Shown here: piece after piece, positions 9,622 to 40,754 of the stretch
Layout of the letters: every line of letters begins with the position of its first letter
Numbering within the stretch: the stretch's first letter is position 1
Origin: a virus
Lineage: Duplodnaviria; Heunggongvirae; Uroviricota; Caudoviricetes
Length of the DNA: 64,000 nt
Virus record (IMG/VR): IMGVR_UViG_3300030339_000018
Strand: one strand, 5' to 3'
Position numbers and translations under genes: made by a program
The notes under the pieces: generated by a model
Database searches by the model: none
What the model saw: the letters and a program-made list of their open reading frames with translations, nothing else
Told to the model about the DNA's origin: nothing

Positions 9622-11538
9622 TTAAAATAAACACAATTGTTTATCTTCAATTAAATTAATTAATTTATTACATTCTTTAATATAAAAATCATAATTAATA
9701 TCATATTCAGACATAATTTTTGATTCATAATTATTAAATATAGTTGTTACAACTCCTACACTTACTCCAGCTATTTTTCCACTTCCATCAGTTGATTTTT
9801 TATATAAAGCACCTCCATGATTTGATACAAAATATCTAGTAGTTTTACTTAATTTTTTAATTTTCATTATTTCATCAAGATAATGCCATTGGGCTTCAAA
9901 TCTACTATCAACTTTTAATCGTAAACAAAAATCATAAATATTATCATGTTTTCTTAATGTTTCTATTATTGGAATTCCAAAGAAAAAATATTGTTCTAAA
10001 GCAATAGATACAATTCTCATTGATGGATCTTTATGAAGATCTTTATTAATTTCAAAAGCACCTTTAGGTTTTATATGATCATCCATATATTGAGCAGAAT
10101 AATTATTAACATCTCTAATAATCATTTTTTTATACTCATTAAATTCATAAGTTAATCCCGTAATATTAGTCATTTCAGTAGTAACATCAATAGCTTTTTG
10201 ATAATCAGATCTTTTAAATCTTAAAGTAATACCATCAGTATTAACTTGAAGAATAACTAAATTTTTTATAGCTTTATGTAATTTTTCAATCCACATACTA
10301 ATCATAACTTGACCAGAAACAGTAGTTTTAAGAGTATATAAAGGATCATATAAATATGAATCTTCTGAATTAGTTTTACCATAACTTCCATTAGCAGCAA
10401 GTTTAAATCCTTCAACAATAACAAAATCTCGTTCTTTTTTAGGTTTTTTCTTTTCTGCTAATCTTACACTAACAATTTCTCCATCATAAATATCTAAAAA
10501 TCCAGTTCCTAAATGTTCAGGAAATAAACCTTGTTGTATAGCAAGACATGGATATAGACCATCAGCATCAATATCTAAAATCATATATTCATCATTTGAA
10601 TCATATACTCCAGATTTTATACAAGCATGACATCCTCCAACACCATAATCAAGTTTAGTTCCTTTATATATTACACTAAATGAAAATACGTTTTTAAGTA
10701 TACCATCATAAATAGTTGTTGAATTAAATTTATTTATTAATAAATCAAATTCTTTATCATTAAAATTAGTCCAAATTGGCATACAATTTTTTAATTGTAT
10801 TTCTTTTCGATAACTTCTTAATTTTTTAATTTCATTTATATTTAAACCAAATTTATCACAATATAATTTAAGAATTAATTCAGTTCCAAGTTTAATATCA
10901 TTATAATTCATACAAGGTAAATCGTATTGTCGTTGAATTTTTTGTCTTAATTCAATTTTATTTTTACCTTTATATAATGGATTTTCAGTATTACCTAAAG
11001 TAATGTTCAAAAATTCATTAGTTGCTTCAACATCATGTTTATTATAAGCTAAAATACTATTAATATCTTCAATAGTAGATATCCATTGAGTATGATGAAA
11101 TGGCATATCTTCTACAATAGGAAGATTCATTGCAACTTCTAATGCTTTTAAACTTGTAAGTTTAGCTTTATTATCATAATGCCAAATTCTAAATAAATCA
11201 ATTTGTTCTATTTTTTTATTCCAATCTGCAACTTGTGAAAATTGATTTGCAATTATTTCTTGAGATTTTTGATAAATCCTAGCAGTAATTGTCATTGGAT
11301 CTAAATATTTATATTCATGATAATGTCGAATAATATGATGTAATAATGGATAATCATAATTATCATTATTATAACCTATTTGAATTAATTTATCTCTAAA
11401 AAGATGATGTATTAATTCTTCATAATCATTTCTCAATTTATGAATTACAAATTGATGATACGTTTTTGTTTGACGACAATATCCAGTATATGTAAATAAA
11501 TTAGATAAACATTCTAAATCATATACTTCACTTAACAT
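9622..11538 (-). CDS. family B DNA polymerase (compact, with 3'-5' exonuclease domain)
   Basis: Exo I YDLEC, Exo II YNNDNYDYPLL, Exo III YNKHD. Pol motif A DIDADGLYPCL, motif B KLAANGSYGKT (Kx3NSxYG-like), motif C QVNTDGI. Confidence 0.7.
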   Translation of the reverse strand: MLSEVYDLECLSNLFTYTGYCRQTKTYHQFVIHKLRNDYEELIHHLFRDKLIQIGYNNDNYDYPLLHHIIRHYHEYKYLDPMTITARIYQKSQEIIANQFSQVADWNKKIEQIDLFRIWHYDNKAKLTSLKALEVAMNLPIVEDMPFHHTQWISTIEDINSILAYNKHDVEATNEFLNITLGNTENPLYKGKNKIELRQKIQRQYDLPCMNYNDIKLGTELILKLYCDKFGLNINEIKKLRSYRKEIQLKNCMPIWTNFNDKEFDLLINKFNSTTIYDGILKNVFSFSVIYKGTKLDYGVGGCHACIKSGVYDSNDEYMILDIDADGLYPCLAIQQGLFPEHLGTGFLDIYDGEIVSVRLAEKKKPKKERDFVIVEGFKLAANGSYGKTNSEDSYLYDPLYTLKTTVSGQVMISMWIEKLHKAIKNLVILQVNTDGITLRFKRSDYQKAIDVTTEMTNITGLTYEFNEYKKMIIRDVNNYSAQYMDDHIKPKGAFEINKDLHKDPSMRIVSIALEQYFFFGIPIIETLRKHDNIYDFCLRLKVDSRFEAQWHYLDEIMKIKKLSKTTRYFVSNHGGALYKKSTDGSGKIAGVSVGVVTTIFNNYESKIMSEYDINYDFYIKECNKLINLIEDKQLCLF

Positions 11539-14358: not shown

Positions 14359-15663
14359 TTAATTCTCAGATTCTATATCAATAATATTTTTATCTAGATT
14401 TTTACTCTCCATTTCATAAAAACCAAAAGATTTACATTTATATGCTTCGAATTCATTTTTTTCAATTCTTATTACAACTCCTTCTTCTACAACTTTATTC
14501 TTACAAATATAACAATCTTTTTCATTATACATTTCCTTTAAAACACTTAAGAAATCTTCCATGTTTTCTGGATTTTGTACTGATAGTTCAGCATATCTAA
14601 ACATAAAATCAAATACACTTCCATAATACAATTCTGGTACAGCCAAAAGACCTTTTTCTTTACAGAAATCTTGTACTTGGTGAGCACTGAATTCAAATAC
14701 TTTTCCAGATGGATTAGTATAAGTTATACGATAGATTCTGATTTCAAATTTACCCTCTTCTTGACCATAATCAAATGGACCTTGGATATATCCACCAGAA
14801 GGTAAAAATCCTACTATTTCATAATAGAAAGTCATCCCATCAGATAAGAACTCTTTAACCATTTCATGAGCTTTACCCCATATATCTGTATCATAGAAAT
14901 GAACAGCATTAGGATTTAAATCTGGATTCTTAATAACTTTACGTGAACTATAAATATAGTCATAATGTGTATCAACTACTTTTATAAATTTACTAGCAAG
15001 TTTTTCAAACCAATTTAAAGGTTTCTTACATAGAATTTTAGCAGAAATACCAGAAGTACCATGCATTTTATATGTAATAGAAATTAAATCATGAGGATGA
15101 ATCTTATGTAAATTTTTATATAATATAGAAGTATCATCATGAAATCTAAATTGATTTTCAATTAATTTTGATTCCCTTGCTAATTTTCCTTTACCTTTTT
15201 TACTATTAGGTGTACCTTGTATTTTATTAGTTTTAATAACATATTTAGAACAAATTGGAACTTTTTGATATTCATCAAATGATCCACCAATTGTCGGAAG
15301 TTCTGCAGCATATCCTTTAGTAATAAACTCTAAAGAATTCAAAGGCATATATAATCCTTCAGATTTATGTCCTCTAAATTTTACACACTTAATACGTCCA
15401 TTTTCTTCAAAATAACCTTTTTTAGTAGAATCTTTATTTAATTCTGCTTTTTTATATAAGTTATTAGCACTAAGATATTCTTTTGATAAGGCTGTTTCAA
15501 CTGGAAAATATAATCCCATTTCATTCATATGTACATCTAATCCAACAACTACTTGGTTTCCCATTATAATTGTGGCCTGTACTTTATCACATCCATCAAG
15601 AGGGACGAGTGCAATAATTTTTACTACAACTGCTGCATAGTTTTCATTTATAGGTTTATTCAT
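14359..15663 (-). CDS. ATP-dependent RNA ligase (Rnl2-like nucleotidyltransferase)
   Basis: Motif I YKMHGTSG (KxHGxxG as in Rnl2 KIHGTN); downstream FYYEIVGF and EGxF-like motifs. Confidence 0.5.
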   Translation of the reverse strand: MNKPINENYAAVVVKIIALVPLDGCDKVQATIIMGNQVVVGLDVHMNEMGLYFPVETALSKEYLSANNLYKKAELNKDSTKKGYFEENGRIKCVKFRGHKSEGLYMPLNSLEFITKGYAAELPTIGGSFDEYQKVPICSKYVIKTNKIQGTPNSKKGKGKLARESKLIENQFRFHDDTSILYKNLHKIHPHDLISITYKMHGTSGISAKILCKKPLNWFEKLASKFIKVVDTHYDYIYSSRKVIKNPDLNPNAVHFYDTDIWGKAHEMVKEFLSDGMTFYYEIVGFLPSGGYIQGPFDYGQEEGKFEIRIYRITYTNPSGKVFEFSAHQVQDFCKEKGLLAVPELYYGSVFDFMFRYAELSVQNPENMEDFLSVLKEMYNEKDCYICKNKVVEEGVVIRIEKNEFEAYKCKSFGFYEMESKNLDKNIIDIESEN

Positions 15664-16911: not shown

Positions 16912-18018
16912 TTAGTTTGCACTTTCTAATAGATAACGGTATTGAATATAACCTTTAAAATTATTACACCAACCATTAGCTGATTCTGGAAAATATTGAA
17001 CTCCATAACTAACACCTTCATCATCAATATATTTACCTTGACCTTTAGTAAAAGTATAATATTCTTCTTCTGTCATAGTGCGAGCACAATGTTCAAAAGG
17101 AGATAAATGCCTATTTGCTTTAAGCATATCATGCATATCAATATCTTTTTGATAATTGATTTCTTTATCGAATGTCATATAAGATAAACGTGCACAACGT
17201 GCAGTTGCAATTTTAATAATAGTATTCTCTGTTTGTTCATAAGGAGCAACATTAGACATTAATTCTATATTCATTTTATCACCAAAAGGAACATGCCATT
17301 CACCTGCTTTTAATAATTTAGGTGTAGATTCATTCATTACATCCCACATACTTTCAGCTAATGCTTGAATATGAATTTCAGCACCTGATGTATTAATATT
17401 TTGCCAATCATAATAAGAAAAATTTTCTAATTTTGTTAAATTTACTTTATTACTATGATTATTAATACAATCTTTTTTACTTTTAAAATAAAAACCTTCT
17501 CCACTTACTGGAGTATGAAATTTTGGACAACGAAGTTCAAAAAAATTATCATATTCAGTAGCTGTTAATAATACTGTATGCCACATAAATGGTTCTAGTA
17601 ATCTATTACAAAGTTGTTTAGTTATTCCTTCAGAAATAATTTCCCCTGGATCTTCAACTGATGTTTTCTTAATAATTGAGTCATGTAAATCATCTGCACA
17701 TTGAATTGCTTTTCTACTAGCATTAAGCCATTGACCGTGTCTAAATCTTATCTGCTTTTCGTCAGTTACATATTCTGTACCCTGCATACCAGAGTGATCT
17801 TTTTGCCATGCAATAGGAATAAATGGATCTGTTTCTACCATTGCTACCATCTTTTCAAATGGAATGGCTCGACTGCTTGCACTATTGCGCGTAAATAACC
17901 GATGTGTATTTAATTCAGGTAATATAAATCTTGGAAATGTTAACAAATAAGTTGTTATTCTATTACCAAATTCATTTATACTATCTGCTACTATTTCTGC
18001 ATTAATTTTTCTACTCAT
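16912..18018 (-). CDS. thyX: flavin-dependent thymidylate synthase ThyX
   Basis: HRLFTRNSASSRAIP resembles the ThyX RHRx7SxR motif; RCARLSYM region; size fits. Confidence 0.55.
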   Translation of the reverse strand: MSRKINAEIVADSINEFGNRITTYLLTFPRFILPELNTHRLFTRNSASSRAIPFEKMVAMVETDPFIPIAWQKDHSGMQGTEYVTDEKQIRFRHGQWLNASRKAIQCADDLHDSIIKKTSVEDPGEIISEGITKQLCNRLLEPFMWHTVLLTATEYDNFFELRCPKFHTPVSGEGFYFKSKKDCINNHSNKVNLTKLENFSYYDWQNINTSGAEIHIQALAESMWDVMNESTPKLLKAGEWHVPFGDKMNIELMSNVAPYEQTENTIIKIATARCARLSYMTFDKEINYQKDIDMHDMLKANRHLSPFEHCARTMTEEEYYTFTKGQGKYIDDEGVSYGVQYFPESANGWCNNFKGYIQYRYLLESAN

Positions 18019-18552
18019 ATTTAATATTTTTCATTTGTTCAAATAAATCTAACAAATCAGATGGTTCATTAATACTCCATCCTTTTGTTCTAAGAACATA
18101 AAATCCACCTTCAGTATCTAATCCACCACAAACTGATTCCATAGTAATTGATAATTTTTCATCTTCATCACTTTTTCCAGTTGTACCGTTTGTATTAGTA
18201 TCTTGTAAAAAAGTGAATACTGCTATATCTAATAACGGTTTTTTTATTTCCATTATAACATTCCTAAAAAAGGTAAAGCTGATTTAGCTTTTTGCATTAA
18301 ACTTGGTTTTGCTTCTACTTTAGCCATAATTTCAATTAAAGTTTGAGCTCCAAATTCATTTACTATAATCTGAACAGCTCTTAGTAAAGCCATTCCTTGT
18401 TCATTACTATTAATTACCGCCCTAAAAGTCATTTCTTCTACTATTGGGTATATTATAGGTTTTGTATCCGTTTTTTCTTGTATTGTACCTTGTATTGCTT
18501 CTGATGCCGGTACTTTTGCAACAGATAATTGTATTCCTTGATTTTCCATATT

Positions 18553-20343
18553 TTATATTTTATTTAAATTAACATTTGAATGTCTAACTGTAACATTTCC
18601 AGTACTTGTTTGATTCATACAACCAAACCAAATATAATCTCCTACTGCAACATTTACTATCCCAGATGATGACATTCCAGAATAATCTGTTGATGTTTGA
18701 AATCTTCTAGATGCTACAATATTATCTAATGACGTTGCATTTTGAAATAATTCAAACTTAAATGTATCTGTGGAATTTGATGGGAATGCTGTAACACTAA
18801 ATGCTAAAACATATGCTGCATTTGAACCTGGATTAACCTGTAGAGTACTTCCCCTACTAACTGATCCTGTTCTAGTTGACGTAAATGCATGTGTAATATA
18901 ATATGAATTTATAGTTACAAATGTTACAGTATAAACTCCATTATAATCTACTGTACCAACCTGAGTTACTGGTTCTCCTGTAAGTAAATTATGTGGTGTT
19001 GTAGTTGTTATTAATACTGTACCAGGAATTGTTCCACTATAATTGGCTACACTTGCTATTGAAGCACTTGCTCCAATTTTAAATGTAAATCCAAGTAATG
19101 AACCAGCACCAAAATTATTAATAGAATGATAAAGATTTATATTAGTTATATTAGTTGCAATAGCATTTTCATATTGATACATTTCTCCATACAATACTTG
19201 CGTACCATTAATTCATTCAGTTCCATTATATCTAAGTACCTGATCAAAGACAGGAGCTGTAATTGTTACATCACTTAATCCAGTCAATTCATTATTTAAT
19301 ATAACTCTTACAAATAAAGTTCCTGCTGTAGCACTAATAACACCAACTCTACCAACTCTAATTACATATTGTAATGGATCAGTTGGTGGAGTCATAGTTA
19401 GTCCTCCAGCTACTGTAGGACTTAAATATACATTAGCTCCAGATACAAAACCTAAAGTATTTAAATTATGTACTACACCAATATTAGTAATTAAACCAGT
19501 ATCTCCAGGTAAAATATCCTGAGTAGCAACCCCAAGAACTGTGGATGTAGCTTCTGATGTTGCAATAGCTAAAGATATAGTACTAGTATCACTTACAAGA
19601 CCAGTAGAATAAACCACTTGACCATTAAGAATAGTTGAACCTGTATTATTAAAACATAATACTGTTGTTTCTTGACCTATTTGTAATGTAACATTTCCTG
19701 CAATCATTATAGCTGCTGTTTTATTAGGAGCATCATAATATAATCTTCCTTGGTCAAATGGACCAACAAGTGGTGCATTTCCAAGTTTAATTCCTTCATT
19801 AAAAGTTGGATAACCATTAATAATTGTTTGTGGTACTGTTTGATCTAATGTTAAATATGATCCTATATTTGCTTTTAATTGTAATTGATCATATAATAAT
19901 TTAGCACTTGGATATTGTACATCTGTTGATGCACCTGAAATAGAAACAACTTTATTAGATATATCTTCTTTTCCTGCAATAGCTGCACTAGTTATATAAC
20001 CAACATCATTTGTAAATGCTGATATTAAAGTTGGAATAGCAGCACTTGTTATAAAGCCACTATCATTTGTTAATTGTGATGTTAAAGTGGGTATAATAGG
20101 TTTACCAGTTAAACTGGCATAAGTTCCTAAAGTAGCTACAGGAGCTAATATAGGTTTATTAAGTATTTCTGCTACTCCAGAAATGGCATTTCAATCTGAA
20201 TTTACTTGAACTCCTCCAGAGCCAAGATTTAAATCATTTACAAATTGACTAAGAAAAGTAGGTCTATTGATTACATTTAATCAATTAATTTTTTCTCCAC
20301 CTAATCCTAGTAAAGTTATGTAGTTGGGGGTTTCTTGTGTCAT
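18553..20343 (-). CDS. tail fibre / receptor-binding-like structural protein, about 596 codons including three in-frame TGA codons (19213-19215, 20191-20193, 20281-20283)
   Basis: ATG at 20341-20343 follows a terminator hairpin. One frame is continuous through TNDxGxITSAAI repeats and Ser/Thr/Gly/Asn-rich sequence. ORF-track pieces 19213..19707 and 18553..19194 are in the same frame and separated only by a TGA. Confidence 0.6.
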
Positions 20344-20355
20344 AATATATAGTAT

Positions 20356-20390
20356 AAAAAAAGGAGGGATATAAATATCTCTCCTTTTTA
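20356..20390 (-). terminator. bidirectional rho-independent terminator between the 20397..20569 ORF and the tail-fibre gene start
   Basis: Hairpin GGAGGGATAT-AA-ATATCTCTCC flanked by an A7-8 run (T-run on minus) and TTTTT on plus. Confidence 0.5.
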
Positions 20391-20396
20391 AGGTTG

Positions 20397-20569
20397 TTAC
20401 TTAGTTAAAAGTTTCATAATTTCTGATTCTGTACAAACGTATGAATCCATTATATCTGCTGTAGCTTTACCAAGTGTATCATAATAAAATTTACGTATTT
20501 TCATACGTTCTTCATTTAATACTAAGTCAATAACTTTAGTAAAACTAATTTTCATATATTCTTCTTCCA
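20397..20569 (-). CDS. small hypothetical protein (57 aa, below ORF-track cutoff)
   Basis: ATG..TAA ORF MEEEYMKISFTKVIDLVLNEERMKIRKFYYDTLGKATADIMDSYVCTESEIMKLLTK, immediately upstream of the terminator at 20356-20390. Confidence 0.3.
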
Positions 20570-20922
20570 TTACGATACTTTATTAGTTTCGTAGATTGCT
20601 ACTGCTCCACCTGCTGCTGAAGCTATTGCCATGAATGATGCTACTGAATTAGTAACAAATGCATCTCCGGCTGCTGCTGTTGCTGTTGCTGGTGTTAATA
20701 ACATTTCATAATCAGTTGCACTAACTACAGTAAAAGAACCTGAAATAGGAATTTTTTTAATATAAATAGTTTGTGTTGCTGATGTATTTTGGATTTGAAG
20801 ACTAGCTCTACTAGTATTAATAGGAGCTACTACTACGGATGTTGTTCCAACTACTAAAGGACTTGCCATAATTTTAAGTTTTTTTAAAAAATAGGGGAGA
20901 TTTTACTTCCCCTATCTTAAAA

Positions 20923-21726
20923 TTAGACAATAGTAGTTCCTGTTACTGTTGGATGAATATGAGTTAAGATTGAACTTAACAGATATTGATTTTGAGCATT
21001 GTTACTAACTTGATTGTTAGCAGCAGCTAATTGATCTCTTAAATTTTGTACATTTAAGTCATTAATTAATGAACGTGTTGCATTTCCGTCAGAATTAATT
21101 AATGATTTAATTTCACAGCAACATTGAGCCATTGCAGCAGCATTTGCAGTTCCTTGAGCTATAATTTGATTAGTAGCATTTTGTGTTTGCATTGCAGCTC
21201 CATTAAAACCTTGTAACGTTGTAGTTGTTAGGTTATTAAATGAATTCAATTGTTGTAATGCATTTTGATTACTTTGTGCAGTAATGTCACGACCTAAATC
21301 ATTAATTCCTTGTAAAGTAGTAAAAGCTGATGTAGCTTGTGCTGTTGATAAATTAGCTACAGAATTTAGAATATTTGCAGCTCCACCATCTATTGCTGAA
21401 TTAACTCTACGAAATTCACTATTTAAGATACTATTTAAGTCACCAGAAGCAACTTGAGATCCTAAATTAGTAATTTGTGATTGTAATGATTGAAATGCTG
21501 GATTAAGAACTACATCAGTTGCTACTGCTGTTGCTGCTGGAGCTACATATCCTGCTCCATATCCTCCACCTCAACCACCACGTCCACCAAGTAATCCACC
21601 TGCTAACGCTCCACCTAATAATCCGGCGATTCCCCCGCCTAAAATTCCACCTCCTGTGCCTAAAGCGGCTCCTGAAGTTCCTGTTCCTCCCATTGCTGGG
21701 ATCATGCCATCTAATGTAAGTGCCAT
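20923..21726 (-). CDS. Gly/Ala/Asn-rich low-complexity structural protein with one in-frame TGA (21571-21573)
   Basis: ATG at 21724-21726 lies downstream of a TAcCTTTG motif (21764-21781). The frame reads MALTLDGMIPAMGGTGTSGAALGTGGGILGGGIAGLLGGALAGGLLGGRGG[TGA]GGGYGAGYVAPAATAV... and continues into ORF 20923..21249 with no other stop. Confidence 0.6.
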
Positions 21727-21763
21727 AATTTAAAGTTTTTAAAAGTTTGTAATAATAATTAAA

Positions 21764-26197: not shown

Positions 26198-26736
26198 TAC
26201 TTTTTATAGTTTACAATTGTAACATCGCAATTTTGTAATTCTTCTTGAATTATTTCTTTGATAATGTCCCAATTACCACCAGCCAAACCACAACCAATTT
26301 TAGGGAGACCAATATGCTTACCTGCAAAAATATAATTCATTTTACGCATACATAAAGTTATTGCTTCATAATCAACAGGAGCTCCACCAGAAGTCCCATA
26401 TCGACATTGTGTATAAGCATTAACAACAGAAAAAGTTTTTAAATCAGTCCATTGTTTGAATTGATTTCTTACTTTACTATGCGAAAATAATTTAGTTTCA
26501 CCTAAATCATGTTTAGATAAAGTAAATGTATCATAATCAATTTGACCAAGTTTATTTACATCACCTTTGTACTCCATATCTTCTAAAGGAAATGTATTAC
26601 ACTCAAAAGTATTTTTCATTTCCACAGCAATACCAGCACCCATTATACAATAACAATTGCAGCCATGAGCGATTACATCAAACTCACCTTGTAAGGCAAG
26701 TTTGATTAAATCACCATCTATTTCTTTATATGTCAT
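26197..26736 (-). CDS. macro domain protein (ADP-ribose binding/processing)
   Basis: DVIAHGCNCYCIMGAGIA glycine-rich macro-domain core. Confidence 0.45.
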   Translation of the reverse strand: MTYKEIDGDLIKLALQGEFDVIAHGCNCYCIMGAGIAVEMKNTFECNTFPLEDMEYKGDVNKLGQIDYDTFTLSKHDLGETKLFSHSKVRNQFKQWTDLKTFSVVNAYTQCRYGTSGGAPVDYEAITLCMRKMNYIFAGKHIGLPKIGCGLAGGNWDIIKEIIQEELQNCDVTIVNYKK

Positions 26737-28160
26737 TATTTTTTATTTAAAGCAATTTGTAAATATTCATCAGCAATTTTACGTATTTCAGTAAATTTTT
26801 GATCATTAAATAATTCTCCATTTTTATAAACTACTTGTAATTCATCTATATAAGGATTATTTTCACCAAATTGTTCAGTAGAACTTTGAATTGTCATAAA
26901 TCCATTACCAGCTTTATGTAATTTTAATAATCCTGCTTTACTTGCTTTAGTCATATCTGATTTTGGAGTTTTTTGTACATTAATAGATTTACCTTCAATT
27001 TCAACATGTGAAACCTTTACAGCCCACCTATCAGTATCTCTACATAAACCATCTGTATGTAATCCACCACCAGAACCAGTATTAAAATTTTCACAAGACC
27101 AACCTGTTTTAATATATTCTTCATAAATTTTAGGTATACTTTTTTCATTCATTCCATCACCTTGAAGTAAACCGACATTATGATTAATCACTTTGTAGTC
27201 TTTATGATTTAAATGATACCCAAAAAGATTACCTAATTGTTCAGAATATTTAATTACATTAGTTAAAGGATCATTACTATCAGGACGAGGTATAACTCTA
27301 CCAGGTCTATCAATAATTTTCTGTTTAACTTCTGGGTCACCGAGTACATTTTTAATAAAACCATCAGCATCATAACTATCCATTACAATACTAATTGGTA
27401 AATGTGGTTCAGCACGTTCTAACTGTGCTAACACATAATCAATTTCACCACGACCTTGACCCCATACAGTTGCTACTGAATGTTCAGTTGCCCACACAGA
27501 TTGACCAATATTATTATCAGTATAGTATTCTTCAATACCTTCCATTGCTGGAAGATTATCACTACCATTAGAGAATATTAACATAGCCATTCCACCTAAT
27601 ACTGCTCCCTCACGATAAACAGCACCACGTAATCCAAAATCATTCACTGCAAATGCTAAATCTGGCTTATCACAAGTCATATTAAAATAAGGAAGAATCC
27701 CTTTTTTAATATTGAATAAACGAGTTGCTACACCAGACGATTGCCAATTCCACATTAAATAATCTTCAAAATGACTAACCATACAAGCAAACCAAGGTTC
27801 AGTTGATACAATAGTGAAACAAACATTACCTGTTGGAAGAACTGTGCCTTCTTTAACACATTTAATTTCCAATGGGAAATAACCTAATTTTTTAACTTTT
27901 TCCCAAATTTCTTTAGGAAAGTATTTATCAGTACCAAAGACACGTTTGCATCTTGCAGCACCTCTTTCAATATTTTCCTGTGTTACTTTCTGCATGAAAT
28001 ATTCTTTAAGAATATATTGCATCCCAAAGAAACAAATTTCTGCATGTTGTCCACCCTTACGAGCTTCACCATATGAATAAAAATGATTAATTCCAGCTGG
28101 ACGTTGTAACCAATGAGTTATTTTATAAGCATCAGTATCTATTACACTATTTTTCCACAT
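26736..28160 (-). CDS. nicotinamide phosphoribosyltransferase (NAMPT/NadV-like)
   Basis: 474 aa, with the NAMPT size and composition typical of phage NadV; adjacent to an NMNAT-Nudix gene. Confidence 0.6.
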   Translation of the reverse strand: MWKNSVIDTDAYKITHWLQRPAGINHFYSYGEARKGGQHAEICFFGMQYILKEYFMQKVTQENIERGAARCKRVFGTDKYFPKEIWEKVKKLGYFPLEIKCVKEGTVLPTGNVCFTIVSTEPWFACMVSHFEDYLMWNWQSSGVATRLFNIKKGILPYFNMTCDKPDLAFAVNDFGLRGAVYREGAVLGGMAMLIFSNGSDNLPAMEGIEEYYTDNNIGQSVWATEHSVATVWGQGRGEIDYVLAQLERAEPHLPISIVMDSYDADGFIKNVLGDPEVKQKIIDRPGRVIPRPDSNDPLTNVIKYSEQLGNLFGYHLNHKDYKVINHNVGLLQGDGMNEKSIPKIYEEYIKTGWSCENFNTGSGGGLHTDGLCRDTDRWAVKVSHVEIEGKSINVQKTPKSDMTKASKAGLLKLHKAGNGFMTIQSSTEQFGENNPYIDELQVVYKNGELFNDQKFTEIRKIADEYLQIALNKK

Positions 28161-28974
28161 ATCTCTTATTTATTTTTTTAAATATTTATTTATTTTCTTC
28201 TACAAATTCTCCAATAATATATTCTGTACGAATTTTACCTACTACTTCGGCTTCACATGAACCACGAGGACAGCATTTAAATTCTTGGCATCTAGGACAC
28301 CAAATTAAATCCGTTTCTTTTGTTGGTATATCAGGTATTACCATTGTTTATTAATTAAATATTCATAAATTTCTCTCCAATCAGTTTCTGGATCGAATCC
28401 AGCTTTATCATCCAAAAGGACACTAAAGTAAAACTTTCTATTAAAATTACCAGTATTAGTATTATGAATATCAGTATTTTTATTAAAGAAATCAACAGTT
28501 ATATTATTTTCTTTAAACATTTGTCTAATACGCATTAATTCAGATGGGTAGCACGAACTCCATAAAATAATTTTAGATTCAGGTAATGAACTAATTAATT
28601 GTAAGCATTCTAAAGCATCATTATTAATCCATTCATTTTGATTAGTAGTATAATTACTTTTTAAACATACACCATGAAGATCAATACACCAATAAATAGT
28701 CTCCCAATTGCGCTCATCCATTACTGAATAAGCACGTTCGATTGATTTGATTATTGACATACTATTAAATTTTAGTACAAGAACAAGTTGCTTTGTTCAA
28801 AGCATAAGAACTAGTTCTAAATCTATCTTCTGGATCTGGGATTGCTTTTAAAGAAAAATCAGTTGTATTTACATGGTATCCTTTAGATTTCAAATGATAT
28901 GCAATTATTTCTTTAATATCTGCAACACTTAAATTAATAGTTACTATTTCGCTAATTTCCATATTAGATATTTT

Positions 28975-29868
28975 TCATTTTAATAAAAATTTAAAAAGTT
29001 TTTTATGTTCTCCGACCAAAATATTTTCTACCTCTGGAGTCATTTTAACCCATTTTAAGGCAGCTATATCATCTTGAGGTTGTGGAGATCCAAACAAAGA
29101 TTTACACTTGTAAAAATGAGTCATAATAGAACGATCTGTCATACCTCTATATCTCCAATCTTGTATCTTCATTGAAGTTACAAATTCAAAGTTGGATAAT
29201 TCAAGTCCTGTTTCTTCTCTTCCTTCACGTTTTGCTGCAGCTTCGTCTGATTCATCTTTAATGTCAACGAATCCACCTACAAACCTCCACTCTTTTTCAT
29301 TAGGTTTTTGACCTAATAATAATTCACCTGCTTCATTAAAAATCGCTACATCTACAGTTGAGTAAACTGTTGGATATTGATTATAAACTGAATAAATTAT
29401 ACCTGCTCTAAATTCAGAGGAAGATTTAACCTTTTTAGATATATCAACACGAATATCAGTTGCAGAGATAAAAGTATCAGGAGTTAATTCCTGAGTCTTA
29501 AATTTACCTTCATAAAAAGGAATAAATGAATCTTTACTTCCGTAAAGAGTTACTGATTCCATATTAAAGATATCTCTAATTTTTTCATCAAGTTTATTAC
29601 TCCAAACTGCATTAGACTTTTGGTCTCTCAAAGGGAATATACCAGCAATACGTAAATCATTCCCAAATGCCTCTTTTAACATCAAACTACGAGTTAAAAA
29701 ATCCATTGGATGTTTCATATTACCTATTGTAGGACTAACGCCTAGAAAGATAATAACTTTATCATGTTTGCTAAGTACGAAGTTAATCAATTTAATATGT
29801 TCACTATGTAGCTCATTAGTTTGAAATCTTCCAATTATAACTCCTACATCTGTTGTTTTAATATCCAT
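28975..29868 (-). CDS. bifunctional NMN adenylyltransferase / Nudix hydrolase (NadM-Nudix-like); ends at a TGA that is in frame with the next ORF (28765..28962)
   Basis: N-terminal GVIIGRFQTNELHSEH nucleotidyltransferase motif; C-terminal Nudix box GGFVDIKDESDEAAAKREGREETGLE. Confidence 0.6.
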   Translation of the reverse strand: MDIKTTDVGVIIGRFQTNELHSEHIKLINFVLSKHDKVIIFLGVSPTIGNMKHPMDFLTRSLMLKEAFGNDLRIAGIFPLRDQKSNAVWSNKLDEKIRDIFNMESVTLYGSKDSFIPFYEGKFKTQELTPDTFISATDIRVDISKKVKSSSEFRAGIIYSVYNQYPTVYSTVDVAIFNEAGELLLGQKPNEKEWRFVGGFVDIKDESDEAAAKREGREETGLELSNFEFVTSMKIQDWRYRGMTDRSIMTHFYKCKSLFGSPQPQDDIAALKWVKMTPEVENILVGEHKKLFKFLLK

Positions 29869-34796: not shown

Positions 34797-34848
34797 TTAT
34801 ATTTTTATTGTACCCGGGCCGAGAATCAAACTCGGATTTGAACGTTAG

Positions 34849-34921
34849 TATGCAAGCTGCGAATCGAACGCAGGACACTCGGTTTAGAAAACCGATGCTC
34901 TATCCCCTGAGCTACAAGCAC
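34849..34921 (-). tRNA. tRNA-Arg (anticodon TCT); acceptor stem carries U.U mismatches
   Basis: D arm GCTCAGGGGATAGAGC, anticodon arm TCGGT-TTTCTAA-ACCGA, T arm CTGCG-TTCGATT-CGCAG. Coordinates approximate. Confidence 0.55.
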
Positions 34922-34924
34922 ATA

Positions 34925-35512
34925 TTACTTATCTTTAGGATAGCGAAATTCATTTCTTGCACTATTCTTATTCTTTGATTTAAATGTATCTAATTGAGAA
35001 TCACAGTTAGGACAAATACACCTATAATTTTCTCTAATGTTATTTGCTGCATCTCCATCAATATGATCTAATATTAAAACTAAATGTTTATTATTCCATA
35101 CAGAATCCATCCCACAAATTGCACATTTATTACCTTGTTCTTTAAGAATAAAAGGTTTTACAGTAGTAATACTATAATTACCTCTTTGATATTCTTTTGG
35201 AGAAGTAAGAAAATAATCATATAATTCTTTAGATTGAAATTCTTTTTGACATGTAATTCCACAATATTTTCTTTGAGTAGTTGTATCTAAAGGTTTTCCA
35301 CAATTTACACAAACTAAATCAGCATATTTATTTACACCTTTTCTAAATGTTTCAGATTCATTTATCTTTCTACGTTGTGGTAATTCAATTCCAAATTTTT
35401 TAGCAACTTTTCTTATATTTGAACCAGTGCAACCATAAGTTAAACCAATTGTATTATAAGGGATATTTTGTACTAAAATTAACTCCTCTAATTCTTCTTT
35501 TATATATTCCAT
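34925..35512 (-). CDS. HNH endonuclease with Zn-ribbon repeats
   Basis: ...LVLILDHIDGDAANNIRENYRCICPNCD... HNH motif; TAcCTTTG promoter-like motif at about 35529-35545 upstream. Confidence 0.5.
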   Translation of the reverse strand: MEYIKEELEELILVQNIPYNTIGLTYGCTGSNIRKVAKKFGIELPQRRKINESETFRKGVNKYADLVCVNCGKPLDTTTQRKYCGITCQKEFQSKELYDYFLTSPKEYQRGNYSITTVKPFILKEQGNKCAICGMDSVWNNKHLVLILDHIDGDAANNIRENYRCICPNCDSQLDTFKSKNKNSARNEFRYPKDK

Positions 35513-35630
35513 TTTTATTAATTATTTATACTACAAAGGTACAAATAATTTTTGATATAAAATAGTTTGAATTAGTTAATTTATGTTAAAAGTGTACTGT
35601 TCTATTCAGTTGAACTATCCAGGCATTTAG

Positions 35631-35701
35631 CAAGTACACTAGGATTCGAGCCTAGATCAGGAGTTTTGGAGACTCTTATGCTACCATTGAATCATATACC
35701 T
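35631..35701 (-). tRNA. tRNA-Trp (anticodon CCA)
   Basis: Anticodon loop CTCCAAA; T arm CTAGG-CTCGAAT-CCTAG. D arm is imperfect. Approximate coordinates. Confidence 0.45.
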
Positions 35702-36138
35702 ATTTTAATTAATATCACATATTAAAGCTTTTCTTTTTTCACAAACTCCATAATAAAATTTAAGATTTTTTAATCCTCTCAAATAAACATTTTGTCTTTG
35801 TGTATCATCCCAATGAATTACAATTTTTGATTTTATAGTTTTATCTGTAATCCAATAATTTGGTTTATTTTTAATATATTCAATAAAATGTTTAATACAA
35901 TTTTTTGCCCATATTAAACTCTTTAATCCATCTTTTCCAGTTACTTTTAAAAATTGATAACCTTCTTTTCTTTTACCAATTTGTAATTTAACATAATACC
36001 AATCACATTTATTAGTACTATCACATTCTAATTCTAAAAAAAGAATTTGACCTGCTTCATTTTTAGTAATATAATAATAAATATCTTTATATTTATTATT
36101 AGGTTTTAATACAATTTCATACATATTATTAATTTTTG

Positions 36139-36219
36139 TACATATAGCAGGACTCGAACCTGCACGCCCCTACGAGCATCGGAGTCTAAACCCGATATGT
36201 CTACCATTCCATCATATAC
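36139..36219 (-). tRNA. tRNA-Leu (anticodon TAG), type II
   Basis: Anticodon loop TTTAGAC, long variable arm GCTCGTAGGGGCGTGC, T arm GCAGG-TTCGAGT-CCTGC. Confidence 0.6.
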
Positions 36220-36226
36220 GCATTTG

Positions 36227-36299
36227 AGCCAAAGGTGGGGCACGATCCCACAACCCTCTCATTACAAGTGAGATACTCTACCAATTGAGCTACTTCGGC
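36227..36299 (-). tRNA. tRNA-Thr (anticodon TGT)
   Basis: GCCGAAG acceptor, D arm GCTCAATTGGTAGAGT, anticodon arm TCTCA-CTTGTAA-TGAGA. Confidence 0.65.
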
Positions 36300-36435
36300 A
36301 ATTTTAGAGGGTCACTATTAACCTCTTTGATGTTGTTTCTTCTTATTCGTACACGTGTTTGAAATTCAGACTGGACTACATTTCTTTACCAGATAGTTTT
36401 AAATATATAAGACTAATGAAAACCTATATATCTTG

Positions 36436-36522
36436 CGGAGAGTACCGGATTCGAACCGATGTGCCCTGTTACAGGCCACTAGTTTAGCAAACTAGCACGA
36501 TAAACCACTCTGCCAACTCTCC
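36436..36522 (-). tRNA. tRNA-Ser (anticodon GCT), type II
   Basis: GGAGAGT/ACTCTCC acceptor, anticodon arm CTAGT-TTGCTAA-ACTAG, long variable arm, T arm ATCGG-TTCGAAT-CCGGT. Confidence 0.65.
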
Positions 36523-37073
36523 AATACATTACTTATGTTGCATATGATAGTGTTTAACTCTCAAATCAACTTTACTTTGTTTTAATTTACTATTAGCAAA
36601 TAAGTTATAAACAGGTTCTTCTAATATGTGATGAATAACATATATAGGAAAATTTAATATATCTATACCAATACAATATTTAACTATCATATTTTTCTTG
36701 CAAATTTATGAATCAACCATCCAAAAACTAAAACAGCCCCTATTATAATTCCAATAATAATTCCAATTCCTATTTTAAACATTATTTTTTAATTTACGTT
36801 TTTGACCATGATATTTAATTTCAATCATAAATATTCATAAGTGACCTTCTTTTTTTTTCCAATCATCTCCATATGATAAACCGCATTAATAGGTCTATCT
36901 TCAATTATACAAACTCCATTCCCAATATAATTATACGATCTTGCATACATTTTATCATTGGTGGAATCTCTAATACATATTTCTTTACCTTTTAAATACT
37001 GCCAATTAATTATAACATCATTACATAATTGATGAAAACTTCCTTGAACTATTTGCATATTATTTAATTTTTG

Positions 37074-37161
37074 GGTGAAAGGTGGGATTCGAACCCACAT
37101 TAGTCATTACAACATTCCTGATTCACAATCAGGTCGGCATCCCTTACCGGCTACAATCACC
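37074..37161 (-). tRNA. tRNA-His-like (anticodon GTG), non-canonical: two U.U pairs in the acceptor stem and about 18 nt between the anticodon and T arms
   Basis: Anticodon arm CCTGA-TTGTGAA-TCAGG, T arm GTGGG-TTCGAAT-CCCAC, possible G-1. Confidence 0.35.
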
Positions 37162-37171
37162 ATATAAAAAG

Positions 37172-37254
37172 TGGGACATGATGGAGTCGAACCACCCGAG
37201 TCCGAAGACAACTGCTTTACAGGCAGTCCCGCTACCCCTACGGTATAACATCCC
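37172..37254 (-). tRNA. tRNA-Tyr (anticodon GTA), type II
   Basis: Anticodon arm ACTGC-CTGTAAA-GCAGT, long variable arm TTGTCTTCGGACTCGG, T arm GGTGG-TTCGACT-CCATC. Confidence 0.6.
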
Positions 37255-37554
37255 ATATAATAGTCTTTCCTATCAGTCATACTTCCTTTAAATTCTGTTT
37301 AGATAATTCATCCTAACGGCAAAGCAGTATTGTATAAACCAGTATTCTTTAAAATTATGCTTGTACCGGAGTATTAGCTTCTTTAATTTTTTCAGCAATT
37401 TTAGTATTAACTGCTTTTAAATTTGCTTGTGCTTGTTCAACTGTAACTATTTGATCATAAGCTAATGCTTTTAAATCATTTAATGACATTGTATCAAGAT
37501 TTACTTGTTGTTCATTCATTGTTTTAATTTTGACTATTATTTATCTCTTTTTAT

Positions 37555-38031
37555 TTATCTTACATTTATAATATTACTAAGTGTACCTTTACTACTAATA
37601 TTATATTTTAACATTAAATCTTTATAAGAATATCCAGAGTCACGATCAGCTTTAATTTCTATAACTAATTCATCTGAATATTTTTTATGTGCATTAGAAG
37701 CTTTATTAATTCTTATTTCTTTAGATTGATCCATCATATTATCACTATGTGTACCTATTTTAAGATTATCCCAAGAATTATTTAAAGAATTACTATCCAT
37801 ATGTCGAATCATTATATTTTCTTTATAAATTTCTTCTCCAAATTTTTGATATGCTTGTAATCTATGTACTCTAACTTTAATAGTTTTACCTAGTAATTTT
37901 GTACTAATAGTTTTATAACCATTATTAATTGTGCCTAATAAAATTTTTCCAGATTTACTAATGCATGTACCATCTTTTTCAACTTTGTACCCTAAATCAA
38001 AAAGTACTTTTTCATAATATGTATATTCCAT
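37555..38031 (-). CDS. HNH_3-family homing endonuclease
   Basis: ...VHRLQAYQKFGEEI...IRHMDSNSLNNSWDNLKIGTHSDNMMD... It is preceded directly by a tRNA-like gene. Confidence 0.5.
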   Translation of the reverse strand: MEYTYYEKVLFDLGYKVEKDGTCISKSGKILLGTINNGYKTISTKLLGKTIKVRVHRLQAYQKFGEEIYKENIMIRHMDSNSLNNSWDNLKIGTHSDNMMDQSKEIRINKASNAHKKYSDELVIEIKADRDSGYSYKDLMLKYNISSKGTLSNIINVR

Positions 38032-38044
38032 ATAATAATTTAAG

Positions 38045-38127
38045 CGGAAGAAGTAGGTCCCGACCCCAAGATGTTTCCGTCCGTACAGATTTCAAGTCTG
38101 TCTTGCTACCTAAGCAATTCATCTTCC
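38045..38127 (-). tRNA. tRNA-Ser-like (anticodon TGA if minus strand), type II-like with aberrant T arm; possibly a pseudo-tRNA
   Basis: Acceptor GGAAGAT/TTCTTCC, D arm TTGC-TTAGGTA-GCAA, perfectly palindromic anticodon stem ACAGA-CTTGAAA-TCTGT. No canonical TTCRA T loop. Confidence 0.3.
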
Positions 38128-38206
38128 ATTAACGAGATTGCTTTGAACCTCTAAAGTCAACCTATATTGATACATATAGGATTTTAGTCTTTCTGGAGAA
38201 AGAATA

Positions 38207-38992
38207 TTATTTTTTAACTATATTTAAAATATCATAAAATTTACACCATTTTCTTATAGCATTATCTGTAACACCATAAAATTTACCAACAGCAACAAAT
38301 GAAATTAATTCTTTAAATTTAGATATAAGTTCTTCAGAAGTAGGTCTTTTACTACCATTAATTTTGTGTGAACATTCTTGAGAACAACATTTATTTTTTC
38401 TAGATTTACCAATTAATTCTTTATTACAGTATAAGCAATATTTAGGAATAATTTCTTTAATTTCTTTAACTTTAATTTCTTTAATTATTTCAATTGGAAT
38501 AATATTTTCATTCACAATAAGACTTTCTTCTTTTTTACCTTTACCTCTATAATTATCAGTAAAAGCGTGACAATTAGGGCATAACATTTGTAAATTTTCA
38601 ATACAATGATTAGTATTTACTCCATCAATATGATGTAATTCTAAAGGAATAGGTTCTTCCATTCATTCAGTATTATTACATTTTTCACATCTATATTCCT
38701 TAATACCTTCTTTTAATAATCTTTTATTTAATTTTGATGTAGAAAAAGTAGAATAAGATACTAAAATTTCTTCAATTGGTTGGGCAAATTTAATTTGTGT
38801 ATATCTTAATCCAACATTCCATACTTGCCCAGTAAAATGATCTGTATTTAAATCATATTCTTTAATTTTAGCATGAATTGTTTTGTAATTTCCTCCAACT
38901 GCTTTTAATCCTATTTGTCGGCATACTCCAGCAATAGATAAATTTTCTTTTACTGCAATTCTAATTTGTTCTTCTGTGTACTTAGTTCTCAT
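38207..38992 (-). CDS. HNH homing endonuclease with N-terminal HTH and C-terminal DNA-binding module; single gene containing an in-frame TGA at 38663-38665
   Basis: ORF-track pieces 38663..38992 and 38207..38662 are in one frame. TGA lies between YRCEKCNNTE and MEEPIPLELHHIDGVNTNHCIENLQMLCPNCH, so the CxxC...HH...N...CxxCH HNH motif spans the TGA. TAcCTTTG promoter-like motif at about 39009-39025. Confidence 0.6.
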
Positions 38993-39074
38993 TTTTATAA
39001 TTATTTAATACACAAAGGTACTAAATAATTTTGAGTCTACCAAATCGAATTATGTTAAAATATATTAAAAATAG

Positions 39075-39155
39075 TACCCGTAGCAGGAGTCCAACCTGCA
39101 CGCTTTTAGGCGCTCCCGCTTAAAAGGAGTGTGTCTAGCATTTCACCATACGGGT
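39075..39155 (-). tRNA. tRNA-Leu (anticodon TAA), type II
   Basis: ACCCGTA/TACGGGT acceptor, anticodon arm CTCCT-TTTAAGC-GGGAG, variable arm CGCCTAAAAGCGT, T arm GCAGG-TTGGACT-CCTGC. Confidence 0.55.
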
Positions 39156-39209
39156 ATTAATTGATTATTTTATATATAATCATAGTTTTAAGAACCATTC
39201 GTTCTTTGT

Positions 39210-39280
39210 TGTCCCATCTAGATTCGAACTAGAGCTATTTGAGTCAAAGTCAAATGTGTTAGACCACTACACTATGGAAC
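39210..39280 (-). tRNA. tRNA-Gln (anticodon TTG)
   Basis: Anticodon arm TTTGA-CTTTGAC-TCAAA; T arm CTAGTTCGAATCTAG. Confidence 0.6.
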
Positions 39281-39548
39281 AATATTATTTTTCTATGCAG
39301 TAAGTGCTTAGACTTGCCTATCATACCTATCAGAATCATTTAATCTGGCACTAATCTTGGTTAGAAAAATTTAATTTAAAGGTACTGAATATCTTAACCC
39401 ACCAGTACAGTCTCAATTCAATTGTATCGCTGTATACGAATACCTTCATGAGGATGGAAGAATTGCTCACACGTTACCTTTATATTGTAAGAATATCATC
39501 ATTAGAAATACAATAAATTGTATTTCATCACACTACTATATTCTTGAG

Positions 39549-39619
39549 CGGGAAGTGTAGGAATCGAACCTACGCCTATTGATTAACAGTCAACTGCTCG
39601 ACCTTCGAGCTAACAACCC
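39549..39619 (-). tRNA. tRNA-Asn (anticodon GTT); acceptor stem with two U.U pairs
   Basis: D arm GCTCGAAGGTCGAGC, anticodon arm GTTGA-CTGTTAA-TCAAT, T arm GTAGG-TTCGATT-CCTAC. Confidence 0.55.
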
Positions 39620-39742
39620 AGTTTATAATTTTTGCTTACCATCGCTTCACTGTTAAAATTACAAAAATACATCAGTTACCATTATCGTTGTTTCTGCATC
39701 AACGCTTCATCCGAAGAGGTCTATAGTCGGTTACTATAACTG

Positions 39743-39816
39743 AGCGATAAGTGGGTCTCCAACCCACAACCTCCGACTTGGAAGGACGGCACTCTAAGCA
39801 ATTGAGCTATTATCGC
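39743..39816 (-). tRNA. tRNA-Gly (anticodon TCC)
   Basis: GCGATAA/TTATCGC acceptor, anticodon arm CCGTC-CTTCCAA-GTCGG (one U.U), T arm GTGGG-TTGGAGA-CCCAC. Confidence 0.5.
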
Positions 39817-40248
39817 ATTTTAATTTAATACTATATCAGGGGTTTTCTATTGTACATTTAGCGAGCTCCCTTATACACATCATGACTAAATTCATGTTAT
39901 TTCCATTTTACAGAAACTATAATATTAAATTATTTTATTAGTTGTAATCTATCAAAGATTAAACCATTATTTTCTATTGCTATGGCTGTAATTGTGCCAC
40001 ATAAATCTGGTTCATGAAATTCAGAAAATGTATATCCATTGTTTGCTAACTTTGGAATCCATTCATCTAAATTTGCTGATAAAAAGAATAAATAGTTGTT
40101 ATTCCATTCTTGTGTTTCTTTATTATCAAGGAGGAATTGTGCTACTGCATGTGCTCCTTGGACACATCCATATACGCTATTTAATCTATTATTAATTAAT
40201 ACGTATAGTTTTCTTTCTTCTACTTGTTCCATTATTATTATTATTTTG

Positions 40249-40320
40249 TGCACCGCCCCAGACTTGAACTGGGAACCTATCGGTTAAAAGCCGAGAGCTC
40301 TACATTGGAGCTAGCGGTGC
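40249..40320 (-). tRNA. tRNA-Lys (anticodon TTT)
   Basis: GCACCGC/GCGGTGC acceptor, anticodon loop CTTTTAA, T arm CCCAG-TTCAAGT-CTGGG. Confidence 0.6.
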
Positions 40321-40553: not shown

Positions 40554-40563
40554 TCATTAATTG

Positions 40564-40636: not shown

Positions 40637-40683
40637 AAGCAAGATTTTTACTTCTAGGAAGAAATACCTTGAAAAAGAACCGT

Positions 40684-40753: not shown

Positions 40754-40754
40754 G

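Follow-up and report, generated by a model that had tools for sequence, protein, structure and literature searches.

Introduction

Three described systems bear on the subject of this paper, the in-frame TGA codons of a tail fiber gene and a neighboring Gly-rich gene in a 64,000-nucleotide stretch of DNA (hereafter, the window) from the Caudoviricetes phage recorded in IMG/VR as IMGVR_UViG_3300030339_000018. The first is that of Borges et al. (bioRxiv 10.1101/2021.08.26.457843; Nat Microbiol 2022), who described diverse, mostly low-GC phages of standard-code hosts that use TGA (as Trp) or TAG (as Gln) in their structural and lysis genes, keep their replication genes in the standard code, and may differ in code from close relatives. 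In such phages 26-71% of the genes are recoded, and code-25 phages have TGA in ~90% of theirs. Borges et al. proposed that a phage-made suppressor turns on the translation of late genes; a suppressor tRNA was detected in 35% of the TGA-recoded phages and, consequently, a tRNA(UCA) is typical of these phages but does not strictly define them. The second is provided by Mgcod (bioRxiv 10.1101/2022.06.29.495998), a study of genomes that use more than one code, among them crAss-like phages with blocks of differing code.

The third system concerns the decoder. Fakih et al. (NAR 2026; PMC13092985) found that a tRNA-Trp(CCA) whose top anticodon-stem pair is open decodes UGA in Blastocrithidia and Condylostoma, and the same form is the sole tRNA-Trp of Ca. 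Zinderia insecticola, in which UGA means Trp, although there the decoding was deduced. In Escherichia coli, a C27A variant of tRNA-Trp raises UGA readthrough, and the combination C27A+G24A+G59A reads UGA in vitro. The strict "Blastocrithidia-like" class of these authors lacks C9 and A24, whereas a larger class of tRNAs with a 4-bp anticodon stem carries A24. Phages go unmentioned in that work.

Here we propose that the phage of the window has a mixed code, in which TGA is read as Trp in a subset of genes and would be decoded by the phage's own tRNA-Trp(CCA). That the phage has undergone partial TGA-to-Trp recoding is, judged from comparisons with homologs, very probable; to the whole statement, decoder included, we assign a probability of about 0.42.

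In-Frame TGA Codons of the Tail Fiber and Gly-Rich Genes

The tail fiber gene (18553-20343, minus strand) runs from the ATG at 20343 to the TAA at 18553, a distance of 596 codons that include three in-frame TGAs and one TGG. A first-pass annotation, made from the sequence alone, had described a 596-codon frame broken only by three TGAs and had held so long a run to be very unlikely by chance. We reproduced its coordinates exactly, found no other stop in the frame and can put figures to the second point: the probability of 596 codons without TAA or TAG is 3e-17 from the regional base composition (31% GC), 100 shuffles of the window yield TAA/TAG-free runs of at most 216 codons, and the remaining five frames of the region contain 13-67 TAA/TAG each. 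The identity of the product comes from tblastn matches to annotated tail fiber proteins of several phages and from phrog_9729 (tail fiber). Gene callers working with code 11 (public calls) break the gene into pieces of 164 and 209 amino acids (aa).

A large-database search gave 821 homologs of the 596-codon product, and all three TGA sites are crossed by homologs in which the aligned residue can be read, which answers a check that the annotation had suggested. The first TGA (codon 21, 20281-20283) stands in IN_LNVINRPTF, the underscore marking the TGA, and belongs to a motif (Y/W)x(D/N)(V/L/I)xNKP(T/S)F, of which we collected 555 instances; the corresponding column of the homologs has Y in 179 cases, W in 79 and G in none (for example, VEWDNVLNKPTF). 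The second (codon 51, 20191-20193) stands in VNSD_NAISGVAEILNKP, within a repeated motif VNSD-W-NAxSGxAEILNKP, and here W is aligned in 94 of the 96 segments that have at least 50% local identity, these segments being drawn from 38 proteins (for example, VNSDWNAISGDAEILNKP in P0033). At the third (codon 377, 19213-19215, in LRYNGTE_INGT), three homologs, P0015, P0032 and P0057, read LRYNG(T/V)EWVN and a fourth, P0050, has F. Past the third TGA, the final 220 residues share 49% identity with the C-terminus of one protein of 608 aa. With Trp placed at in-frame TGAs, predicted peptides that span such sites include VNSDWNAISGVAEILNK and YNGTEWINGTQVLYGEMYQYENAIATNITNINLYHSINNFGAGSLLGFTFK.

The Gly-rich gene (20923-21726, minus strand; ATG at 21726, TAA at 20923) has 267 codons and encodes a protein rich in Gly and in Q/N that has an invariant CCC motif and matches phrog_8119, a family of unknown function. 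Its one in-frame TGA (codon 52, 21571-21573, inside GGRGG_GGGYG) was found at the position and in the context that had been reported. The family consists of phage proteins of ~260 aa, with 180 homologs in a search of protein-cluster representatives. Across the 24 full-length homologs, the column of codon 52 holds W in six, F in 14, Y in one and I, L or G in three (Gly at most once), and the closest homolog, P0125 (61% identical), reads NGGWGGNGYG with its W encoded by TGG.

Could the TGAs have arisen from sequencing or assembly error? This was considered and rejected. The polB protein of the phage is on record in 41 sample blocks, on contigs of up to 168 kb, the 168-kb assembly being ENA ERZ27249832 contig k141_1775190 (168,189 bp; window positions equal its own minus ~68,316). 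Over the region, ENA and JGI contigs obtained from other samples show 99.97-100% identity and retain the TGAs. Since independent assemblies are nearly identical, the TGAs are real and fixed in the population.

Further Genes With In-Frame TGA

Two more genes of the window carry one in-frame TGA each. An HNH homing-endonuclease gene that lies within the tRNA array (38207-38992, minus strand, 261 codons) has a TGA at codon 110 (38663-38665), in the interval that separates its CxxC and HH motifs. In that column W is present in four of five phage homologs, and the fifth has W one residue off; gene callers break the gene into products of 109 and 151 aa. The DUF1064 gene, of which the window holds the 5' part (1-370, minus strand), extends past the window start to a total of 172 codons and has its TGA at codon 17 (320-322), ahead of a Pfam match that covers residues 37-150.

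Beyond the window start we followed the genome for ~34 kb (loci L007, L065 and L066). There, the replication arm goes on to encode an A1-like DNA transfer protein, ribonucleotide reductase, dUTPase, DNA ligase and a lysozyme-domain protein, after which it runs up against giant genes that form a convergent arm (L066 1-14560, ~24-34 kb beyond the window start). One of the giants has 1519 codons with five TGAs and eight TGGs, another has 2882 codons with three TGAs and 15 TGGs, and next comes the end of a third, of 2873 codons; a TAA or TAG is absent from all these frames. The arm also has a 282-codon gene. The giants are ORFans, and the proteins have no PHROG match and no precomputed Pfam match; some homologs of the 1519-aa protein carry PF12705 (PD-(D/E)XK). 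Homologs of this protein are single chains of 1518-1568 aa that cross all five TGA sites. The closest of them, P0304 (78% identical), has W at three of the sites (codons 140, 149 and 1043), and its gene call ends exactly at the fourth (codon 1176), where distant homologs continue with Y or W. From this comparison, close relatives differ in having TGG or TGA at the same codon, and P0304 has fewer TGAs.

In total, there are 14 in-frame TGAs in six genes, and 12 of the 14 are in the tail fiber, Gly-rich and giant genes. Approximately 30 replication and nucleotide-metabolism genes have none. As a share of Trp codons, TGA accounts for four of five in the tail fiber and Gly-rich genes taken together, three of four in the tail fiber gene alone, and eight of 31 in the giant genes; TGA use is, thus, gene-specific within one genome. 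The first-pass annotation had placed the TGAs inside late or structural genes, a description that may hold for 12 of the 14 but hardly for the HNH gene, which sits in the tRNA array, and the DUF1064 gene, which sits at the end of the replication module. Even for the tail fiber gene it fits in part only: the type of protein is that of a virion component, but the gene does not lie in a structural module, being flanked on one side by the genes for NAD salvage and tRNAs and, on the opposite side, by thyX, RNA ligase and polB.

It had further been supposed that the contexts of the TGAs do not discriminate between Trp and Gly and that the residue cannot be read from the sequence. On this point we disagree, because the homologs decide for Trp. 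Each informative TGA site is aligned with Trp or another aromatic residue, and Gly occurs in 0-1 of 24 homologs at the Gly-rich site and at none of the others. These residues of the homologs lead to the conclusion that TGA is read as Trp. A readthrough-promoting context was also considered, and was rejected as the sense TGAs have no common +4 base or flanking motif.

The Cassette Around the Tail Fiber Gene

The tail fiber and Gly-rich genes belong to a cassette whose small members, at 20570-20869 (99 aa), 20397-20570 (57 aa) and 18253-18549 (98 aa), all on the minus strand, have zero Trp codons. In a relative (L033, 983-1796), the contiguous order is Gly-rich gene, 95 aa, 60 aa and 97 aa, and the tail fiber gene is absent between the last two; it was, therefore, either inserted in the lineage of the window or lost in that of L033. 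To judge from gene order, it looks like an inserted or exchangeable module. A terminator-like hairpin (~20350-20390, read by eye) precedes the tail fiber gene in the window. A recent foreign insert, as judged by composition, was rejected: the GC content of third codon positions (GC3) of the cassette is 0.06-0.12 and this, like its codon usage, equals that of the rest of the genome, so that composition gives no sign of a foreign cassette, and the higher overall GC of the cassette derives from amino-acid content. When the 168-kb ENA assembly is compared with the window, there is a 6-base indel at ~20686, inside the 99-aa gene; the strains otherwise differ by 1-2 substitutions per 12-21 kb.

The Gly-rich gene and the 99-aa gene, both on the minus strand, have a near-identical leader (at 21722-21740 and 20865-20883, respectively), AAAAACTT(T/A)AAA(T/A)TTATGGC, which is without a Shine-Dalgarno sequence and has no further perfect copy within the window. 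The leader that the two genes have in common may be a marker of one expression class. A homolog of the Gly-rich protein is also present on an unrelated contig, L034 (ENA ERZ28615087, 7.6 kb, 48% GC), that is heavy in in-frame TGAs, having 17 in one 568-codon tail-like gene and others in the holin gene. There, the Gly-rich homolog has a TGA of its own and adjoins Amidase_3 and holin genes, a position with which a late role of the Gly-rich family fits.

What Reads UGA?

Which molecule would read the UGA codons of these genes? We suggest that the host is on the standard code and that the phage would supply UGA-reading capacity during infection, the TGA genes being fully translated only once that capacity is present, as in the model proposed for TGA-recoded gut phages. 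The strong avoidance of TGA in early genes and the TGA stops lend indirect support to a standard-code host. Within the sequence that was read, the likeliest decoder would be the phage tRNA-Trp(CCA), with its 4-bp anticodon stem and A24; tRNAs of this form read UGA through near-cognate pairing and compete with RF2. Such reading by the phage tRNA would account for three features together, namely the persistence of TGA as a stop, the small number of in-frame TGAs and the lack of a tRNA(UCA) in the array.

The array (34848-41882, minus strand) comprises 20 tRNAs for 18 amino acids and none with the anticodon UCA (ARAGORN and Rfam). The search for a decoder covered ~103 kb, that is, the window together with L007, L021, L065 and L066, of a genome of at least 168 kb; over this sequence, the whole array included, even relaxed ARAGORN thresholds brought up no tRNA(UCA), and the Pfam tables of the called genes contain no release factor or tryptophanyl-tRNA synthetase (TrpRS). 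What the array does contain is a tRNA-Trp(CCA) (35630-35701, minus strand) in which four Watson-Crick pairs are topped by A27 and C43, which do not pair, with a 7-nucleotide loop, CUCCAAA. Its D stem has a U11-A24 Watson-Crick pair, and G9 is present. The 4-bp anticodon stem is not peculiar to one program, as ARAGORN, direct parsing and an Rfam covariance-model alignment, in which the non-canonical pair is flagged, give the same fold, and 16 of the 20 phage tRNAs have intact 5-bp anticodon stems. The mismatched arm, AGAGU-CUCCAAA-ACUCC, is also that of 15 tRNA-Trp genes from unrelated phages in IMG/VR, as compared with seven genes that have the pair G27-C43 and 26 that have A27-U43. From its predicted fold, we consider the phage tRNA-Trp(CCA) a plausible decoder, though this falls short of proof.

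Several tRNA-like elements came up as candidate suppressors and were rejected. That at 41730-41802 (minus strand) is a tRNA-Asp(GUC), found by Rfam and missed by ARAGORN with default settings. The one at 50649-50725 (minus strand) has an enlarged anticodon arm without UCA; it scores 52.8 bits with Rfam and has sound acceptor, D and T arms, with an anticodon arm that is 3 nucleotides too long and poorly paired. ARAGORN reports it as a Cys(GCA) tRNA whose loop is abnormal, and it could be a tRNA with an intron or expanded loop or a tRNA-derived element. The third, at L021 3036-3106, is a weak match, at 30.3 bits with Rfam; its acceptor stem is poor and its anticodon is AAA, and it lies ~2.1 kb past the window end in a 1.2-kb stretch without called genes. 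A tmRNA is also present in the window (53981-54400, minus strand; Rfam RF00023, 75.5 bits, full length), again missed by ARAGORN; its tag, as read from the alignment, is approximately ENVKSLIFGSRTAYAVAA and ends at UAA.

A number of observations count against the tRNA-Trp(CCA) as decoder, or against the scheme as a whole. About 65 kb of the genome lie outside the part that was read, and a tRNA(UCA), RF1 or TrpRS may lie there. The 27:43 position is also unpaired in tRNA-Lys(UUU) (40248-40320, minus strand; C/U) and tRNA-Met(CAU) (40682-40753, minus strand; U/U plus U/U), which means that the feature is not specific to Trp. A screen for in-frame TGA in those IMG/VR phages that have the same arm gave no clear link, the screen being a noisy one. 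The stem is perhaps less open than drawn, as an A26-U44 pair and a protonated A27/C43 wobble are possible. According to Fakih et al. (PMC13092985), the effect in E. coli is modest, ~2.5-fold on overexpression, and tRNA-Trp(CCA) genes with a 4-bp stem make up 8.9% of tRNA-Trp genes and are common in standard-code bacteria. Genes with 3-5 UGAs need efficient reading, and the fact that three of the four Trp codons of the tail fiber gene are TGA fits efficient suppression better than leaky readthrough. Finally, two of the six TGA-bearing genes (HNH and DUF1064) are not obviously late.

These points give weight to the best of the alternatives, which accepts the same recoding but assigns it to a conventional phage tRNA(UCA), perhaps with RF1 or TrpRS, that is encoded in the remaining ~65 kb and is on before late expression. 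We consider this a real possibility, if at less than even odds. It is the standard mechanism of the TGA-recoded Agate and Jade phages, efficient decoding is suggested by how often Trp is written as TGA in the tail fiber (3/4) and giant (8/31) genes, and the two stray tRNA-like genes outside the main array indicate that clustering is not strict. Nevertheless, the array of 20 tRNAs is where such a tRNA would be expected and, like the rest of the ~103 kb, does not have it, nor do the Pfam tables list an accompanying release factor or TrpRS; and such tRNAs are found in just 35% of TGA-recoded phages (Borges et al.).

TGG, TGA and TGA Stops Across the Genome

A different explanation does away with the phage decoder altogether: the host itself would read UGA as Trp, belonging to the Mycoplasmatales or another RF2-less lineage with code 4, and the TGAs near gene ends would be relics or by-products of overlaps. 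The genome is indeed very AT-rich, and some pipelines used table 4 for it, although the latter may reflect a model choice made for low GC and is not counted as independent evidence. We consider this explanation improbable. Within 60 confident genes there are 5 TGAs against 167 TGGs, a TGA/(TGA+TGG) of 0.029, so that 97% of Trp codons are TGG; yet the codons of Lys, Glu, Gln, Leu (TTR) and Arg (AGR) are A-ending in 90-92% of cases, a bias that under code 4 predicts mostly TGA for Trp. The TGAs are, moreover, clustered in few genes and not evenly spread, and the phage has a tRNA-Trp(CCA) and no tRNA-Trp(UCA). The first-pass annotation had likewise regarded TGA as a rare sense codon in a genome that is not wholesale code 4, and these counts agree with it, as does our recount of the six TGG codons of polB (9622-11538).

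TGA also terminates ~17 genes. In-frame TGA occurs in ~4% of the window genes and a TGA stop in ~17%. When open reading frames (ORFs) delimited by TAA or TAG are considered, 13 of 28 in-frame TGAs fall in the last six codons, as opposed to 3% of the TGGs (Fisher 1e-9), and most of the stop TGAs are ATGA start/stop overlaps. There may be a weak tendency toward backup stops past the TGA stops. If TGA were sense, the ATGA pattern could have arisen from longer overlaps, a point that a code-4 host would have in its favor, and the weight is, therefore, borne by polB, the NUDIX gene and the codon bias. The polB of two relatives, L011 and L012 (73% polB identity), ends in IEDKQMSLFP-TGA, at the conserved C-terminus, and the same end position has TAA in the polB of the window and of two other relatives. 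Similarly, the NMNAT/NUDIX-type gene (28975-29868, minus strand) has a TGA stop (28975-28977), and its Pfam NUDIX match ends ~20 residues before that TGA, which places the stop at a domain boundary. The replication and nucleotide-metabolism genes and most of the small genes are in the standard code, with TGG for Trp and TGA as a stop.

Are the In-Frame TGAs Genuine Stops?

If TGA is a stop elsewhere in this phage, might it not be a stop in these genes as well? The TGA-bearing genes would then be pseudogenes, or would be expressed as fragments only, or would yield full-length protein via rare spontaneous readthrough. Code 11 callers do yield fragments, the absence of the tail fiber gene from the cassette of a relative may mean that it is dispensable, and HNH endonuclease genes often decay. 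Several findings nonetheless make this explanation highly improbable. Every in-frame stop is a TGA, and no frameshift, TAA or TAG occurs across 596, 1519 and 2882 codons; under random decay, the probability that five of five nonsense codons are TGA, with no TAA or TAG, is 1e-3 to 9e-3. All informative sites are aligned with Trp or another aromatic residue, although TGG is the origin of no more than 4-27% of the paths that lead to TGA by one mutation in these genes, most starting from GGA, TTA, TCA and AGA; for the five of five informative sites considered, the probability ranges between 1e-7 and 1e-3 according to the transition bias that is assumed. Nor could the conserved parts between TGAs readily be made as separate products, as there is no start codon under code 11 in conserved codons 22-212 of the tail fiber gene, and, in the DUF1064 gene, none of ATG, GTG and TTG occurs in the interval from the TGA to the domain. 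The sequence is fixed across more than 40 sample blocks. Spontaneous readthrough, for its part, would have to be raised to the third or fifth power and would give virtually zero product.

The last alternative, that TGA means glycine (code 25, with Gracilibacteria or Absconditabacteria as hosts) or selenocysteine, can draw on the one TGA that lies amid a glycine run, but we give it next to no weight, as the column of that very codon is aromatic in 21 of 24 homologs, the other sites have W, Y or F, TGA occurs in ~4% of genes here vs. ~90% in code-25 phages, and Rfam gave only tRNAs and the tmRNA in the window and no selenocysteine insertion sequence (SECIS).

Genome Setting

The phage genome that contains the window is at least 168 kb long and has 27% GC. 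The closest polB match in IMG/VR is 64% identical, and GenBank phages have 33% polB identity at most. In a related contig (L014, 86-2468), the first 434 residues of polB are spread across 2.4 kb, which suggests that this polB carries an insertion (e.g., an intron, intein or homing endonuclease). Auxiliary genes on the minus strand include those for NAMPT and the NMNAT/NUDIX-type protein of NAD salvage (26736-29868), a CCA-adding enzyme beside the tRNA array (44031-44762), RNA ligase (14359-15663) and ThyX (16912-18018). Two further genes on this strand (49045-50622 and 56690-57871) are paralogs of unknown function that share N-termini of the form MxLTNxxxKYxPxxT and C-termini of the form YFPEV(I/T)ELNFD, and the longer of them has apparent internal repeats.

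Implications

Annotation under the standard code fragments the tail fiber, the giant proteins and several other genes, as the public gene calls show. A practical consequence is that, unless mixed coding is allowed, catalogs lose the receptor-binding proteins and the largest genes of phages of this kind. In evolutionary terms, the phage resembles an early or sparse stage of recoding, since its in-frame TGAs are few and lie in few genes, TGA has kept its role as a stop, and fewer in-frame TGAs occur in a relative of 78% identity; an intermediate state of this kind is a prediction of a published evolutionary model.

If the proposed decoder is the true one, UGA would have a dual, dose-dependent meaning within one infection, being a stop where RF2 wins and Trp where the abundant phage tRNA wins. 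The first-pass annotation had called the codon possibly regulatory, and we, too, see such a role as conjectural. The same mechanism could account for the approximately two-thirds of published TGA-recoded phages that have no detectable suppressor tRNA. Regardless, a TGA-recoded phage whose tRNA-Trp(CCA) has a 4-bp stem, and whose array is without tRNA(UCA), makes the near-cognate route to UGA testable in phages.

Comparison With Known Systems

How does the phage compare with the known systems? As with the Agate and Jade phages, it is a large low-GC phage in which TGA means Trp in virion-type genes and the replication genes are compatible with the standard code, and its relatives differ in TGG or TGA at one codon, which points to step-wise accumulation. 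It differs from them in that ~4% of the window genes are recoded compared with 26-71%, TGA is a stop in ~17% of genes, no tRNA(UCA), RF1 or TrpRS was found in the 103 kb read, and two TGAs are in non-structural genes; the samples, too, are other than the gut samples of that study. With the multi-code block phages it shares the presence in one genome of standard-code genes and opal-reassigned genes; in contrast to those phages, the TGA genes of the window are scattered singly, and any arm that resembles a block may start only with the giant genes, which lie outside it.

The Hirsh suppressor is the G24A form of E. coli tRNA-Trp. The phage tRNA resembles it in having an unchanged CCA anticodon together with U11-A24 in the D stem, but this pair is natural in many bacterial tRNA-Trp genes and is, therefore, weak evidence alone. 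A closer likeness is that to Blastocrithidia, Condylostoma and Zinderia, with which the phage has in common the retention of CCA, an open top pair of the anticodon stem, a 7-nucleotide loop, UGA at Trp positions and the fact that no tRNA(UCA) was seen (in the phage, over the ~103 kb read). Unlike in the Blastocrithidia type, the tRNA is phage-encoded, its function is that of a candidate, and UGA is still a stop; and while it has G9, its A24 separates it from the strict "Blastocrithidia-like" class and fits the larger class with A24 and a 4-bp stem. It is possible, although we regard it as doubtful, that reading of UGA by a near-cognate tRNA-Trp(CCA), with no UCA suppressor, would make this phage the first viral case of the Blastocrithidia/Zinderia mechanism. 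Whatever its decoder, the phage is a further case of the partial TGA-to-Trp recoding described by Borges et al.

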